From Chlamydiota bacterium (GTDB lineage Bacteria > Chlamydiota > Chlamydiia > Chlamydiales > SM23-39): a stretch of 15,891 nucleotides of DNA. Shown here in pieces: positions 9,001-15,000 of this stretch. The stretch is taken from the NCBI GenBank assembly GCA_038534095.1, contig JBCAXK010000036.1:1-15891 (forward strand), in the 5' to 3' direction. The stretch's first letter is position 1. Each line of letters opens with the position of its first letter. The position numbers are program-made.

Positions 9001-12000
9001 GTTGCCCATAGCTTTTCGTAATAAGCAGCCATTTTTATCGAAAGATTCTTGGGACAAATACGTTCCTTGCATTAGCGCAAAAAAGGTAGAGCAGGCTTGG
9101 GTCATCAGCATATTAAACAATCTTTTAAGCGTTAAGCCAGATCAGAGGATGACAGCAGAGGGGGCTCTAAGATGTTTGGTCCCAGAGTGTGGTGGTATGG
9201 ATTGATCTTAAATTTTTCCTTCCAAAGGAATCTTCAAAGCAATAAGTGTTTAAATTTTCCTCTTAATAGGGGTATTTTTCTTTTCTACGAATCGATCTAG
9301 TAGCCCATCCATCGACAGAAAAGAGTCCTGGACCAAATAAAAGAACCGTTAGGGAAGTAAACAGATAAGCAAAAGGGGTTTCTTTCGCAAAAATCGCTGG
9401 GTCTTTGAATAGAGAAAGAGTGAAGGCGTCTGCGTGCGCGGTTGAGTAGGCAGTGAACATAATGATCGTCAGTACAAGAGCAGAAGGGCGACTGATCAGT
9501 CCAATCAGTAGGAAAAACCCGAGAATTATCTCAGCGTAGCTTACGAAATAGGCATGAAATTCAGGAGCCCAAATATTTAGACTCATCAGAAAATTTGTGA
9601 AACCAGGGATGTCTCCCGCCTTGTTCCAGCCGCTAAGTAAAAATTGATAGCCCCAAATCAACCGGATAATCAGCAAAAACAGGCTTTGAAAACACGTAAC
9701 AAACCAAACAAATTTTTGATAGATTTGTATTCCTATTGAAGATTTTTCTAACATAATAGATCCTTTCATTTCTATTTATCATTTACGCGTTTTTTTTGAC
9801 AAAAAGAATCGAAAGAGTGGTATCATTTTCGGAAAAGAAGGTATGTGTGTTAAGAGAATTTTGTGGTCTATCTTATGAAGAACTTGTAGATTGGTGCAGC
9901 AAGCAGGGTTCGCCAGCCTACGTTGCAAAGCAACTTTTTGATTGGGTGTATACAAAAAAAGTCACTTCGTTTTCCTCGATGAGCAATCTTAAAAAAACGT
10001 TTAGAGAAACATTGGAAAAAACATTTCGGTTGCCATCTCTTCAGCTCTCTCGAGTGCTGCAGACCGAAGAGGCGGTGAAGTGTTTATGGGAACTTCACGA
10101 TGGGCACAAGGTAGAATCGGTTCTGTTATTCTCTCCAGGAAGAAATACGGTATGTATCTCTTCTCAAGTTGGGTGCAACGCAAGGTGCGCCTTTTGCGCT
10201 TCAGGCAAACAGGGGTGGAAACGTCATTTGACAAGAGCAGAAATTATAGAGCAGGTCGTCTTAGCAGCCCAGATGCTCGAAAAAGAGGGGAAGAAATTGA
10301 CCCATATTGTGTTCATGGGCATGGGAGAGCCTCTCGAAAACTTTGAGCAGGTCCTTTTTGCCTTAAAACAGATCACGTCTCCTCAGGCGTTTGGATTTTC
10401 GATGCGAAGAATTACTTTGTCGACCGTAGGGATTGTCGAAAACATCCATGCGCTTGCAGATTCAGGGTTGAAGGCTACGCTTGTCCTATCTTTGCACGCC
10501 CCCAATCAAAAAATCCGAAAAAAAATCATCCCCTATGCTCGTAAATACCCCTTAGAAGATCTTTTAGAAGCGATGCAATATTACGCAGAAAAAACGAAAC
10601 GGGATGTGACCTATGAATACATTTTGATCGATGAAATCAACGCAGAAAAAGAGCACGCTAAGGAACTAGCAGAGCTCTTAGAAGGGCAGCAATGTACCGT
10701 GAACTTAATCCCCTATAATCCTATTCCTGGAGTGGCTTTACGCAGACCTGGTAGACAAAAAATTGAAACCTTTGAGAAAGAGCTCGCAAAACGGGGCGTC
10801 CGATCTACAAGAAGGTACACAAAAGGAACAGAAATTGCCGCTGCTTGTGGGCAGTTAGCCCTAAACGCGCCGAACTTAGAGGCGCAAAACCGAGTATAAT
10901 ACCGAGTACAAAACAAGGCCCCGCTGATGAGTTTAGCCCACTACTTTACGTTTTTTCGAATCCTATTGATCCCCTTTTTTCCCCTGCTCTATTTTCAGTA
11001 CCCTGCGCTTGGAATTTCCAGCAAGGTACTTCCCTACGTGCTGATTGCTGTTTTGGGCGTCTGTGAATTCACCGATCTTTTTGATGGGTTCATTGCTAGG
11101 AGAAAAAACCAAGTTACTGACCTTGGGAAAATTCTCGATCCTATGGCAGATAGCATCATGCGGATTACCGTGTTCCTTACGTTTACAAAGGGGATCATCA
11201 ACCTTCCTCTTGTTCTTGTATTTGTGTTTATGTATCGGGAGTTTTTTATTAGCACGCTAAGAACTCTTTGCGCAATGAAAGGGATGGTTTTAGCCGCAAG
11301 AATTTCGGGCAAGATCAAAGCCTTTTTGCAAGGGGCAGCTGCGTTCATCATTCTTTTCTTGATGCTGCCTTATGAACATGGATGGCTGAGTTTATCTGTT
11401 TTGCAAGCTCTGAGTATGTACATTGTGAGCGTTGTTGCCGTTTACGCGGTGATTTCGGCTGCCGAGTATGTCTACGTAAATCGGGAGCTGATTCAGAAAG
11501 CGATTTCCCTTGAAACGTAGGGGAGACAATTCCCCTTGCGGCTTTTCTTAACGTTCTTTTGATGGGTTAGGTAAGGTGGTCAGCCCATTTTGGGGACCGT
11601 TTTTTCTGCATATTGTTGGCGCCAAAAATGCTTGGCAATAAGAGCGATGATAGAATAGATACTTGCTCAACCCCAAAATCTAAAGAGGCTTGCTAAAAAA
11701 GCTCTCCCTATTTTTCTAAGGGACGGTTTTTTGCGACGATTTGTTTGTAGATCGCTTCGTACTTTTTTGCAGGAGCATCCCAGCTGTATGAGGCGCTCAT
11801 TCCATTTTCAATGAGCGTTTTGCAGCGATCTTTTTTCCAAACATCTAGAGCGTAATTGATGGTCTCTTTTGCTATAGAAAACGAGGATTTTGTAAAATAG
11901 AATCCATTGACCTTCTTGGAGTCTTTTTCATACCTTGGGTCAAATATGGTGTCTTTGAGGCCTCCTATGTGATGGACAATAGGGACGCAAGCATACTTCA

Positions 12001-15000
12001 TCGCAATCATTTGAGTGAGCCCGCAAGGCTCAAATTTCGAAGGCATGAACAAAAAATCGGCAGCTGCGTAGAGCCACCTACTTAACTCATTGCTAAATAG
12101 GGGAATAAAACGGAGATGGGGATGATGTTCATAAGTTTTGGCAAGCTTTTCAAAATGGGCTTGTTTCTTTTTTAAAGGAGAGGTGCCTAAAAGGATCCCT
12201 TGAGCGAACTGTTTTGTTGCAAATATCAGCCCATTTTTCATCAGCTCTGGGTTTTTTTGATCGGCTAAACGGGAGATACACACAATGAGGGGGCGCCCCT
12301 CTTCTTGTAGTCCAAGCCGTTTTTGTAAAGCGCGCTTATTGTTCCGTTTTGCAAGAAGAATCTCGTCTAAAGAAGCGTTTTTAGGGAAGCGGTGAGGGAT
12401 AAGAAGATCTTTTTCTGGATCCCACAGCTCTTCATCGATTCCATTCAAAATGCCAGAAATGGAATCCCTCCGTTTTTCTAGGAGGTCGACAAACCCGCAA
12501 GCATATTTTTTGGTAAGAATCTCCTTGGCGTACCCAGGCGATACGGTCACAAGAGCGTCGCACAAACCAAGGCCTCCTCTCATGAGAGAATAGTAGGTGA
12601 AGAAAAATCCTTTGCTAGAAAAACACTCTGTATGCGTTAGGGGATAGTGGATCTCTTCTAAATCGCTCAGAGAAAATTTGCCAGTGTAGGCAAGATTGTG
12701 GATGCTCAGCGCGACCGACTTCACAAGGACTTTTAAAGACAAGTAGACCTCTTTTACAAGAGGAGCCATTAAAGCAGAGTGCCAGTCATGCAGGTGAAGA
12801 ACATCGATTTCCTGATTTTTTCGGATAAGGTACTCTGCAACAGTTTTGCAGAAGTAGATGAAGCGCTCGCTGTCCCTTTTTGTGCCTAGGTAAATTTTTT
12901 GTTCATAAAAATGATCGAGAAGAGGGCTTGTTTCAATAAGGTAGACTGGGATTTTTTCTATTTCGGTATGAAATACCCGCACATCGTAAGAAATTCGTTT
13001 TTTTTCACAAGGAAACTGCATGTCGAGACGTATTTCTTTTGCATCTAAAGAGAGCAAAGAATATTTTGGCAAAATCACAGAAACGTGGTTCCGTTTTTGT
13101 TGCGCTTTGGCAAGACCTGTGACGGCATCTGCCAATCCGCCCACTTTTGCGATGGGCGCCATCTCAGAAGCTACGTGTACTATATGCATGAATACCTACT
13201 TTTTCACTTTTGCGATAAAACGGGAGAGAAGTCAAGGGAATATTTTGATCCAAGTAGGGCGTTTTTTGGGGCGCTGTACGATTCTGAAGGGTTTCGATAG
13301 CCTTTTGAAAAATTGTTTGTAGGGTCTTTTGGTATGTACAATTTTGGTCTATTTGTTTTTTTGCCAGCGGCCCAAAATGCAAGAAATGCATCGCAGTTTT
13401 TGCGCTGCTTGCTTGGGAGAGTGTTGAGTTTTACCAATGTATGGACCTGCTGCTGACGTTTTTTCTCTTAAGCGAAAATGGCCTGCTCTTCTTAAGGGAA
13501 CGGAACAGATTTTTAGATAGCTTAAAAAAATATTTACCAAACCTCTTCTCTTAGGAAAAGGCTGACGCAGAATATTGCCATTAATAGTACGATTTTTGTA
13601 TGATTATTGTTTTATTTGAGGTATCTTAATCTACAGATCTTCCCATGTAGAAAAAGATTCTTTTATTGGGGTGTCGCCAAGCGGTAAGGCAGCGGTTTTT
13701 GGTACCGCCATGCGGAGGTTCGAATCCTTCCACCCCAATTTTATGGAAGATAAATGATGGAAAGAAAAAACAGCTTTTTGCTGTTTTCAGGATCTTCAAA
13801 TAAAACGTTAGCCAAAGAGCTAGCCAGCAATTTACAGACTTCTTTAGGAAGGGTGCGCATTGGCAAATTTCCTGATTGTGAAACAGAAATCGAAATTTTA
13901 GAAACAGTACGTGGCAAAGACGTTTTTGTTTTACAAAGTATTGCAAGGAAGCCTAATGAATATTTGATGGAACTTTTCATCATGATCGATGCTCTGAAAA
14001 GAGCTTCTGCAAAGAGTATACAAGTGATTATTCCCTATTATGGGTATGCTCGCCAAGATCGAAGACATGTGAATAGAGTCCCCATCACAGCGCGACTTGT
14101 GGCCAATCTTCTGGAAACAGCCGGAGCCACGCGTCTGATGACAATGGATTTGCATACCGATCAAATCCAAGGATTTTTTACGATCCCTACAGATAATTTG
14201 TCAGCGCAAGAGGTGCTTTTGGCAGCTTTGCAAAAAGAAAGTCTCGTTGATGTTACGGTCGTTTCTCCCGATATAGGGAGCAATAAAATGGCTATGCGCT
14301 ACGCAAAGGCTTTAAACGGGGAAATTGCCCTCGTGCACAAAGTACGCATCAATGGAAAAAATGTTTCTGATGGCGGCCTTTTGGGCAATGTCTTTGGGAA
14401 AAATGTTGTGATCGTAGATGATATTTGCGCAACTTACGAAACCCTGCGCCTAGCTGCTTCTGTTTGCCAGAAGCATGGGGCAAAGAGGATTGTTGGCCTT
14501 GTAACGCACGCGGTGTTGCCGAGGGCAAAAAAAATTCCAGGAGTAGAAAGGCTATTTGTAACCAACTCTATCCCTGCCGAAAATGTAGAAAAAGATGTGG
14601 AAATGGTGTCGATAGCGCCGCTTTTGGCAAAAGCTATTTTACGCACTCTTTCAGGAGAATCGGTCTCTTCTTTATCTCCCTAAGCAAGTGATGAAGAGAG
14701 AGCATTATTAAGAGGATGTATGAAATTATCAGTTTTTAAACGGGAAAAAAAGGGGAAGGGCGCCCTAACGGACATTCGGGCACGTAACGGAATCCCTGCA
14801 GTCCTTTACGGAAAAAAAATCGAGAATCAGACGGTTTTTGTGAAAGGAGAAGAGTTTTCTGCCGTCATGAGGAAAATTCCTACAAATCACCTTTCGAACA
14901 CACGATTTTCTCTCGATTATGAGGGGAAAACCTATTACGCCCTTGTCAAAGGAATCGAGTATCACAAAATCACGTACAATCCCCTTCACCTCGATTTTAT

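Follow-up and report, generated by a model that had tools for sequence, protein, structure and literature searches.

In the classical chlamydial glycogen pathway, GlgC, GlgA and GlgB are accompanied by GlgP, GlgX and MalQ (survey by Colpaert et al. 2021, Commun Biol 4:296; PMC7935935). According to published surveys, including that study, Chem Rev 2024 and Pillonel 2018 (PMC5826181), GlgC-GlgA-GlgB is kept by nearly all chlamydiae, and glycogen metabolism is described as conserved across a large environmental chlamydial family. Two departures have been reported. In the Waddliaceae and Criblamydiaceae the GlgC pathway is described as defective and replaced by a trehalose-dependent GlgE pathway (PMC7935935), and the chlamydia ‘R. 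socialis’ is reported to have lost all glycogen genes (bioRxiv 10.1101/2024.11.28.625222). In C. trachomatis, glycogen enzymes are described as secreted into the inclusion and host glycogen as being used (eLife 2016, PMC4829429; Chem Rev 2024, section 7.2).

The stretch of DNA analysed here, henceforth referred to as the window, is a contig of 15,891 nucleotides from the draft genome of a Chlamydiota bacterium (G000; congener, G001). It carries the glycogen synthase gene glgA as its sole member of the pathway, and the remaining parts lie on other contigs of the same genome.

Results

Glycogen genes retained in G000

TIGR02095 matched the window ORF (residues 1–484 on model positions 1–477) with 443.5 bits, above its cut-off of 328.45, and the Pfam family Glyco_transf_5 did so at 1.4e-53, in agreement with a preliminary description that had placed a glycogen synthase here. 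The closest solved relative of the protein is the catalytic domain of Arabidopsis SS4 (6gne, E 5.5e-84), and the E. coli GlgA structure 2qzs was matched at E 4.5e-58. In the phmmer alignment, KVGGL, HDWH, SRLxxQK and FEPCGLTQ of the window protein line up with the motifs of E. coli GlgA (3d1j/2qzs); KxGGL, HDWH, SRLxxQK and FEPCGLTQ are the conserved catalytic motifs of GlgA. Sequence identity is 65% to the G001 protein and 62% to that of G047. The gene is read as an intact, putatively working GlgA.

Profile matches also bore out the glgC, glgP and malQ genes that had been assigned to contigs C16, C23 and C13 (Table 1). Both NCBIfam matches of GlgC are full length yet below their cut-offs (equivalog: 398 versus 425). 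The ORFs of glgC, glgA, glgP and malQ are all intact, and G000 thus holds both the GlgC-GlgA and the GlgP-MalQ parts of the classical pathway.

Table 1 Positions of the glycogen-related genes and deletion junctions in G000.
Feature	Position	Strand	Remarks
glgA, GT5 ADP-glucose-type glycogen/starch synthase	window, 11708..13189	-	493 aa; TIGR02095, PF08323
glgC	C16:5901-7193	+	NF002772 442 bits; TIGR02091 398 bits
glgP	C23:10839-13427	-	TIGR02093 851 bits
malQ	C13:10646-12226	+	NF011081 593 bits, above cut-off
TreS-like GH13	C30:18285-20402	+	705 aa; TIGR02455
glgB deletion junction	C1:61449-61452		hypothetical gene and LigA overlap
glgX deletion junction	C46:1324-1741		flanking genes 418 bp apart

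Searches for branching and debranching enzymes

Neither the branching enzyme GlgB (GH13_9 or GH57 type) nor the debranching enzyme GlgX of the classical pathway was found in G000, as the preliminary description had proposed. Profile searches with TIGR01515 (GlgB) and TIGR02100 (GlgX) returned no matches at E<=1 in G000, G001 and G017. With PF00128, nothing above threshold was obtained in G000 or G001, again as described before, and at E<=1 the search of G000 picked up only the TreS-like ORF discussed below. The earlier counts of PF00128 matches elsewhere (11 of 11 other family genomes, 17 of 21 in all) became 16 of 18 and 26 of 31 in a larger sample.

The earlier finding of no GH57 (PF03065) match in G000 was reproduced, and none above cut-off was present in any of the 11 family genomes missing both GlgB and GlgX; the positive controls G018 and G012 gave matches, and the match in G058 was sub-threshold (15.4 bits). 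A GH57-type branching enzyme was rejected as a substitute on this basis. The same was concluded for a eukaryote/archaeal-type debranching enzyme, since GDE_C had no match in G000, G001 and G017. To look for remnants, 36 ORFs of the relatives’ loci (GlgB, GlgX, TreY, TreS and neighbouring genes) served as tblastn queries at E<=10. Against the whole G000 assembly, the relatives’ GlgB, GlgX and TreY gave a best E of 0.25, and pseudogene remnants of glgB or glgX were dismissed.

Deletion junctions

The ancestral glgB site has the order hypothetical gene-glgB-LigA in the relatives G004, G005 and G013; in G018 and G009, glgB directly adjoins LigA and the side of the hypothetical gene is truncated or lacks conservation. 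In G000, LigA (C1:59443-61452) meets the hypothetical gene (C1:61449-62387) with a 4-nt overlap. This glgB-free junction lies inside contigs in all seven genomes examined (G000, G001, G017, G047, G057, G059 and G071). The ancestral glgX lies between a CesT-like gene and a CT253-lipoprotein gene in G004 and G008; one extra gene intervenes in G013, and only the CesT-like side is conserved in G007. The two flanking genes were adjacent without glgX in six of seven genomes examined (G000, where both lie within one contig, G017, G047, G057, G059 and G109). The G001 site is rearranged, with no glgX beside the anchor gene. Two GlgB-positive genomes, G009 and G049 (a single contig in the case of G049), also show the glgX-free junction.

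Because both ancestral loci sit inside contigs and are empty, the losses of glgB and glgX in G000 are clean deletions, and an assembly or binning gap was ruled out as their cause. This largely answers a worry raised in the preliminary description over the draft state of the bins (G000, 96.6% complete in 87 contigs; G001, 88%). G000 and most genomes of the set are draft bins, and relocation of a copy to an unbinned contig is an unlikely possibility.

Distribution and order of loss

Among 103 family genomes, GlgB was present in 89 and GlgX in 75, and both were missing in 11. For one of these, G038 (82% complete), the absence is probably due to incompleteness, because its congener G013 has both genes. 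The pattern extends over about ten genomes in at least eight genera of the family, so that its earlier attribution to G000 and the congener, which do share it, was too narrow in scope. The remaining genes are largely kept: GlgP in 11, MalQ in 10 and GlgC in 10 of the 11 genomes without GlgB and GlgX, and GlgA in 14 and GlgC in 12 of the 14 genomes without GlgB.

Loss of both genes is common to G000, G001 and G047 and recurs in other lineages. The grouping (G009,(G047,(G000,G001))) was obtained with an SH-aLRT value of 99, and G009 keeps a syntenic glgB. Three changes are needed to explain glgB loss on the tree, of which the starred branches force at least two. The tree and the junctions together place the loss of glgX first, in a subclade of the family; glgB then disappeared at least twice among these glgX-less lineages, one of its losses falling in the stem of G000, G001 and G047.

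Selection on the retained genes

GlgA identity within G000, G001 and G047 was 61%, compared to 60.5% for MutS. Inside this clade dS is saturated and dN/dS yields no value; the figures are from the G057/G058 pair only, with dN/dS of 0.16/2.16 for GlgA and 0.20/2.01 for MutS. On these data GlgA is under purifying selection, and the remaining glycogen genes likewise appear to be under purifying selection across deep divergence. Faster GlgA evolution after the loss was considered and rejected (identity of 38.3% between the clade and other genomes versus 40.8% in other pairs whose MutS had diverged equally).

A TreS-like GH13 protein

The preliminary claim that the genome has no GH13 protein at all did not hold. 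The ORF on contig C30 matches TIGR02455 (TreS_stutzeri) over its full length at E 4.9e-194 (residues 20–690 on model positions 6–679). The score of 646.4 bits is below the equivalog cut-off of 719.4, and the protein is classed as TreS-like, short of a proven TreS. PF00128 reaches only 9.9 bits on this ORF against a cut-off of 22, and hmmscan lists no Pfam family for it; as a practical warning, an entire GH13 subfamily of these genomes escapes PF00128 used alone. A profile built from 12 homologues matched GH13 structures only, among the 60 matches listed, the best being the TreS structure 5x7u (E 6.6e-9). GH13 regions I, II and IV align, and the catalytic triad D307, E352 and D417 is invariant in 12 of 12 homologues, with E352 as the putative acid/base residue. 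Sec-signal-like N-termini are present in 11 of the 12.

This type of GH13 is carried by both G000 and G001 and by many GlgB-positive relatives, and was not found in five of the 11 genomes without GlgB and GlgX (G017, G038, G057, G058 and G109). Its occurrence shows no link with the loss of glgB and glgX, and given the same distribution and its signal peptide, it was rejected as a replacement for GlgB. A search of G000 for Mak with a relative’s full TreS-Mak (1081 aa) as query detected none, the best E being 0.010. The GlgE model PF11896 matched none of nine genomes, the intended in-group control G025 included, and the TreS-Mak locus of G025 has no adjacent glgE.

Discussion

On the evidence of gene content and synteny, G000 and about ten relatives have truly deleted the branch-making and branch-removing genes and kept the other four. 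The glucose chain that these bacteria make and consume is probably unbranched, a state undescribed for the group. Where GlgC and GlgA work without GlgB, the chains formed are unbranched, E. coli glgB mutants make an amylose-like glucan, and a GH77 transferase with a GT35 phosphorylase suffices to degrade linear alpha-1,4 chains. The reading favoured here, with moderate confidence, is an unbranched alpha-1,4-glucan or maltodextrin pathway in which glgB and glgX are deleted and glgC, glgA, glgP and malQ kept. GlgC would supply ADP-glucose, GlgA would lengthen alpha-1,4 chains that are never branched, and MalQ would reshuffle chain lengths; together with MalQ, GlgP would complete the breakdown of the chains to glucose-1-phosphate and glucose. 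Since unbranched chains require no debranching, the remaining four-gene set would be self-sufficient.

The activities of the four enzymes are predicted. Of the stable switch to an unbranched store that had been proposed earlier, the loss of GlgB and GlgX with the four other genes kept stands at the gene level, through clean junctions, shared and recurrent loss and selection, whereas the putative unbranched product and its storage role follow only from enzyme content. Long linear glucan chains dissolve poorly, and less glucan accumulates in GlgB mutants of E. coli. Mutants without the branching enzyme, in an archaeon and in Arabidopsis, are described as failing to pile up linear glucan, which is removed by hydrolases (Chem Rev 2024). 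It therefore does not go without saying that an unbranched store would be useful. The wider proposal is advanced as tentative: a stepwise dismantling in a family subclade, with debranching lost first and branching at least twice independently, may have led to a natural, ADP-glucose-fed and strictly unbranched alpha-1,4-glucan, whether amylose-like, a short maltodextrin or a GH77-made cyclic glucan.

The four enzymes could instead chiefly turn over maltose, maltodextrin or trehalose rather than build a store, which is considered unlikely. Host trehalose and maltose would be interconverted by an exported TreS-like GH13, with MalQ and GlgP handling maltodextrins as they do in the maltose system of E. 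coli, and GlgC and GlgA would give linear primers for MalQ, which requires maltotriose or a longer chain to start from. The retention of MalQ and the phosphorylase is consistent with such turnover, as are the invariant triad and signal-like N-termini of the TreS-like protein. However, the TreS-like gene is not found in nearly half of the genomes that show the pattern and is common in GlgB-positive relatives, and therefore provides no general explanation.

Continued branching of the glucan, with branching and debranching supplied by a bacterial enzyme so far unrecognised or by enzymes of the host, is distinctly unlikely. It is possible for a branching enzyme of a yet unrecognised family to escape homology searches, and the secretion of glycogen enzymes into the inclusion and use of host glycogen, described above for C. 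trachomatis, would speak for a host contribution. Nevertheless, neither of the two known branching-enzyme families, GH13 GlgB and GH57, was found, and the retention of GlgC suggests that ADP-glucose is produced within the bacterial cell, out of reach of host enzymes. The co-loss of the debranching enzyme also fits an absence of branches better than outsourced branching.

The position of malQ on C13, directly after the genes for SctW (the type III secretion gatekeeper) and a CesT-family chaperone, and that of glgX beside a CesT-like chaperone gene in relatives, would suit GlgA, GlgP and MalQ being secreted effectors that act on host glycogen or sugar nucleotides, so that bacterial branching and debranching became dispensable; an effector hypothesis for chlamydial glycogen enzymes is cited by Pillonel 2018 (PMC5826181). 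This appears improbable, as gene adjacency is weak evidence, the same arrangement occurs in GlgB-positive relatives and GlgC is kept in 10 of the 11 genomes. Very improbable, and already largely refuted, is that glgB and glgX went unassembled or unbinned, or that the remaining genes are relics preceding a total loss of the kind reported for one chlamydia (bioRxiv 2024.11.28.625222): Colpaert et al. ascribe such gaps in uncultured chlamydiae to probable missing data (PMC7935935) and the bins of G000 and G001 are incomplete, but in G000 the ancestral loci are contiguous and empty, remnants were not detected, and the intact ORFs appear to be under purifying selection. Synteny here demonstrates real loss.

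The gaps represent real, clean, ancient and repeated deletions of exactly two branch-handling enzymes and, under the preferred reading of an unbranched glucan, amount to a natural experiment on the ability of an intracellular bacterium to live on such a polymer. An evolutionary logic is suggested, in which branches became dead-end carbon once debranching was lost, and branching was therefore lost next. If true, Chlamydiae would here have their first natural GlgC/GlgA storage system that lacks GlgB. Because the closest solved relative of the synthase is plant SS4, the case would also bear on the storage use of semi-crystalline or linear glucans and on the connection of chlamydiae with the evolution of starch.

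The E. coli maltodextrin system consists of the amylomaltase MalQ and the phosphorylase MalP. That system is a catabolic regulon and the glgB mutants are laboratory strains, while the GlgB-less state of G000 is natural, ancient and repeated and belongs to an obligate intracellular lineage. Compared to the classical chlamydial pathway as surveyed by Colpaert et al. (PMC7935935), GlgC, GlgA, GlgP and MalQ of G000 are of the same families, the genes are similarly scattered over the genome and GlgA is of the plant SS3/SS4-like type; GlgB and GlgX, in contrast, are deleted. G000 resembles the Waddliaceae and Criblamydiaceae in departing from this pathway and in carrying a trehalose-synthase-type GH13. 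It differs from them in that GlgC and GlgA are intact, no GlgB of any type was found, and the TreS-like protein is of the P. stutzeri type with a signal peptide. Like ‘R. socialis’, as reported in the preprint cited above, it breaks the rule of a full glycogen pathway in all chlamydiae, but where that chlamydia lost every enzyme, G000 lost only the two that handle branches.

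Retained glycogen genes

The glycogen synthase gene (glgA) that the preliminary description had placed on this contig, C36, was borne out: its product scored 443.5 bits against TIGR02095 (cut-off 328) and also matched Pfam Glyco_transf_5. Among solved structures, Arabidopsis starch synthase 4 came closest through its catalytic domain (6gne, E 5.5e-84), with E. coli GlgA ranking behind it (E 4.5e-58), and the motifs KVGGL, HDWH, SRLxxQK and FEPCGLTQ align with the E. coli enzyme. The surrounding genes are housekeeping genes (MutS, DnaG, GlyRS, Ser/Thr kinase, RlmN, PgsA, PRPP synthase, L25 and Pth). 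The 288-aa ORF among them was without a match in Pfam or NCBIfam, and no Pfam family matched the N-terminal 320 residues of the 560-aa kinase protein. The study genome (G000; 1.62 Mb, 87 contigs) is 96.6% complete, and the placements of GlgC, GlgP and MalQ in it were upheld by NCBIfam matches, that of GlgC being full length but sub-cut-off. malQ directly follows genes for an SctW type III secretion gatekeeper and a CesT-family chaperone; glgX of relatives likewise adjoins a CesT-family gene. The sctW-chaperone-malQ order, together with a gene for a CT253-family lipoprotein, supports placing the genome among the chlamydiae.

Table. Locations of the features discussed (G, genome; C, contig; L, extracted locus).
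Feature	Location	Strand	Remarks
glgA	window 11708-13189	-	493 aa; ADP-glucose-type glycogen/starch synthase, TIGR02095
ORF, 288 aa	window 2796-3662	+	between mutS and dnaG
Kinase protein, 560 aa	window 7523-9205	+	Ser/Thr kinase domain only at residues ~326-549
glgC	G000 C16:5901-7193		NF002772 442 bits, TIGR02091 398 bits, both below cut-offs
glgP	G000 C23:10839-13427		TIGR02093 851 bits
malQ	G000 C13:10646-12226		NF011081 593 bits, above cut-off
sctW, CesT-family gene, malQ	G000 C13:9056-12226		L091 2056-5227
ligA	G000 C1:59443-61452
Conserved hypothetical gene	G000 C1:61449-62387
TreS-like GH13 gene	G000 C30:18285-20402		705 aa
Second glgB and GH57+DUF3536 gene	G018 C3:3628-8005		L083
Second glgB and GH57+DUF3536 gene	G012 C3:6286-10667		L080
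Adjacent GH57 and GDE_C genes	G023 C97:828-4166
G022 locus	G022 C1:141618-142721
Broken GlgB region	G016 C4:661623-663378		several frames, internal stops
TIGR02455 paralogue, ~600 aa	G004 C12:154683-156005		L169

Deletion of glgB and glgX

The reported lack of the branching enzyme GlgB and the debranching enzyme GlgX was corroborated by protein models, by tblastn and by empty syntenic sites. PF00128 gave no match above threshold in G000; it matched in 26 of 31 sampled genomes, those without a match being G000, its congener G001, G017, G022 and G023. Neither TIGR01515 (GlgB) nor TIGR02100 (GlgX) matched in these five genomes at E<=1, and models for GH57 and GDE_C found nothing in G000, G001 and G017. 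GH57 had no match above cut-off in any of the 11 family genomes lacking both enzymes, the controls G018 and G012 being positive. The whole G000 assembly was searched by tblastn with 36 ORFs from relatives' loci, including annotated GlgB, GlgX and TreY, for which the best E value was only 0.25.

Since passages in Colpaert et al. ascribe gaps in uncultured genomes to missing data, synteny at the ancestral sites was the decisive test. In relatives, glgB has ligA on one side and a conserved hypothetical gene on the other (G004, G005, G013) or immediately adjoins ligA (G018, G009). The same two flanking genes overlap by 4 nt in G000 with no glgB between them, and the glgB-free junction was contig-internal in all seven genomes examined (G000, G001, G017, G047, G057, G059 and G071). 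glgX is flanked by a 174-aa CesT-family gene and a CT253-lipoprotein gene in G004 and G008; one extra gene is interposed in G013, and the site is conserved on the CesT-like side only in G007. On G000 C46 these flanking genes lie 418 bp apart, and the junction is also empty in G017, G047, G057, G059 and G109. The site is rearranged in G001, where the anchor gene has no neighbouring glgX. The absence of glgB and glgX from G000 is a deletion, not an assembly gap.

Distribution and order of loss

Among 103 family genomes, GlgB was matched in 89 and GlgX in 75. All 14 GlgB-less genomes carry GlgA (two copies are cut by contig ends) and 12 of them carry GlgC. Both enzymes were missing from 11 genomes (G000, G001, G047, G017, G057, G058, G059, G109, G054, G071 and G038), all with GlgP and 10 with MalQ. 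The pattern described earlier for the study genome and its congener thus holds in both but is not confined to them. In G038, an 82% complete genome with a congener that carries both genes, the absence is probably a gap; missing GlgB in G031, G048 and G092, which keep GlgX, is also read as gaps.

Other gene sets were observed in further genomes. The GlgX-less G018 and G012 encode a second, shorter GlgB (653-655 aa, ~900 bits on TIGR01515) adjoining an 805-808-aa GH57+DUF3536 protein, a pair that may be an alternative branch-handling cassette. G023 and G022, from other families of the same order and both without GH13, look like distinct glycogen gene sets inside one order: GlgA was not matched in G023 with the query used, and G022 has GlgA and a weak GDE_C-like 738-aa ORF, with no match for GlgC. 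In G016 (6 contigs, 63% complete) GlgB is broken and GlgA has one in-gene TGA, reflecting either decay or indel errors.

In trees of MutS alone and of MutS with GlgA, 10 of the 11 genomes lacking both enzymes fall in one part of the family, where the GlgX-less, GlgB-positive G009, G018 and G012 also group. The arrangement (G009,(G047,(G000,G001))) had an SH-aLRT of 99, and G009 retains a syntenic glgB. The empty glgX junction is common to G009 and the single-contig G049, and glgX is still in place in G008. Together, the glgB of G009, the shared empty junction and the tree show that glgX was lost first and glgB later, more than once. Three changes are required on the tree for glgB loss, at least two being forced by starred branches, a count that is provisional because these are two-protein, quick-search trees.

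GlgA was as conserved as MutS among G000, G001 and G047 (61.2% vs 60.5% identity), with no marked acceleration on the stem of this clade. For G057 vs G058, dN/dS was 0.16/2.16 for GlgA and 0.20/2.01 for MutS; dS is saturated within the G000 clade.

A trehalose synthase-like GH13 protein

The statement that the genome has no GH13 protein at all did not stand. The TreS-like ORF on C30 matched TIGR02455, the P. stutzeri-type trehalose synthase model, over its full length (E 4.9e-194; 646 bits, below the cut-off of 719), and a profile of 12 homologues (L034, L087, L088, L160-L168) had only GH13 structures among the 60 matches listed, with D307, E352 and D417 invariant. The ORF scores 9.9 bits against PF00128, which is blind to this TreS_stutzeri-type subfamily. 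A Sec-signal-like N-terminal peptide was present in 11 of the 12 homologues, pointing to a trehalose/maltose isomerase that is either periplasmic or exported. Strong TIGR02455 matches (E<=1e-170) occurred in 21 of 103 family genomes, GlgB-positive ones among them, and in only 6 of the 11 lacking both enzymes; the protein is therefore ruled out as a GlgB replacement. A second paralogue family of ~600 aa with weak TIGR02455 scores (140-226 bits) was found in G004 and ~25 other family genomes and not in G000; the single member read, L169, has a signal-like N-terminus.

Discussion

Apart from the GH13 statement, the preliminary description was strengthened, the gene losses being firmer than it had claimed. 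Its proposal of an unbranched alpha-1,4-glucan is a plausible interpretation of the loss of GlgB and GlgX. From established enzymology, the retained enzymes would form a closed system: GlgC and GlgA would synthesize unbranched alpha-1,4 chains, MalQ would remodel them, and GlgP with MalQ would break them down, making debranching unnecessary. Against an unbranched store, a linear glucan may be poorly soluble or fail to build up, as E. coli mutants indicate. Failure to accumulate is also raised in Chem Rev 2024.

The best-surviving rival, that the enzymes serve maltose, trehalose or maltodextrin turnover, is unlikely. A branching activity of a kind so far unrecognised is a possible alternative, and the reading in which branching is outsourced or performed by such an enzyme ranks just behind, at slightly longer odds. 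That secreted enzymes work on host glycogen is more doubtful again, and artefact or decay, faced with glgB-free junctions inside contigs, is largely refuted and scarcely credible.

Selective loss of GlgB and GlgX is unreported in text passages of Pillonel 2018, Colpaert 2021, Dharamshi 2023, Chem Rev 2024 and a 2024 preprint describing total glycogen-gene loss in one species. The gene set without GlgB and GlgX is a novel variation on the known GlgC pathway.
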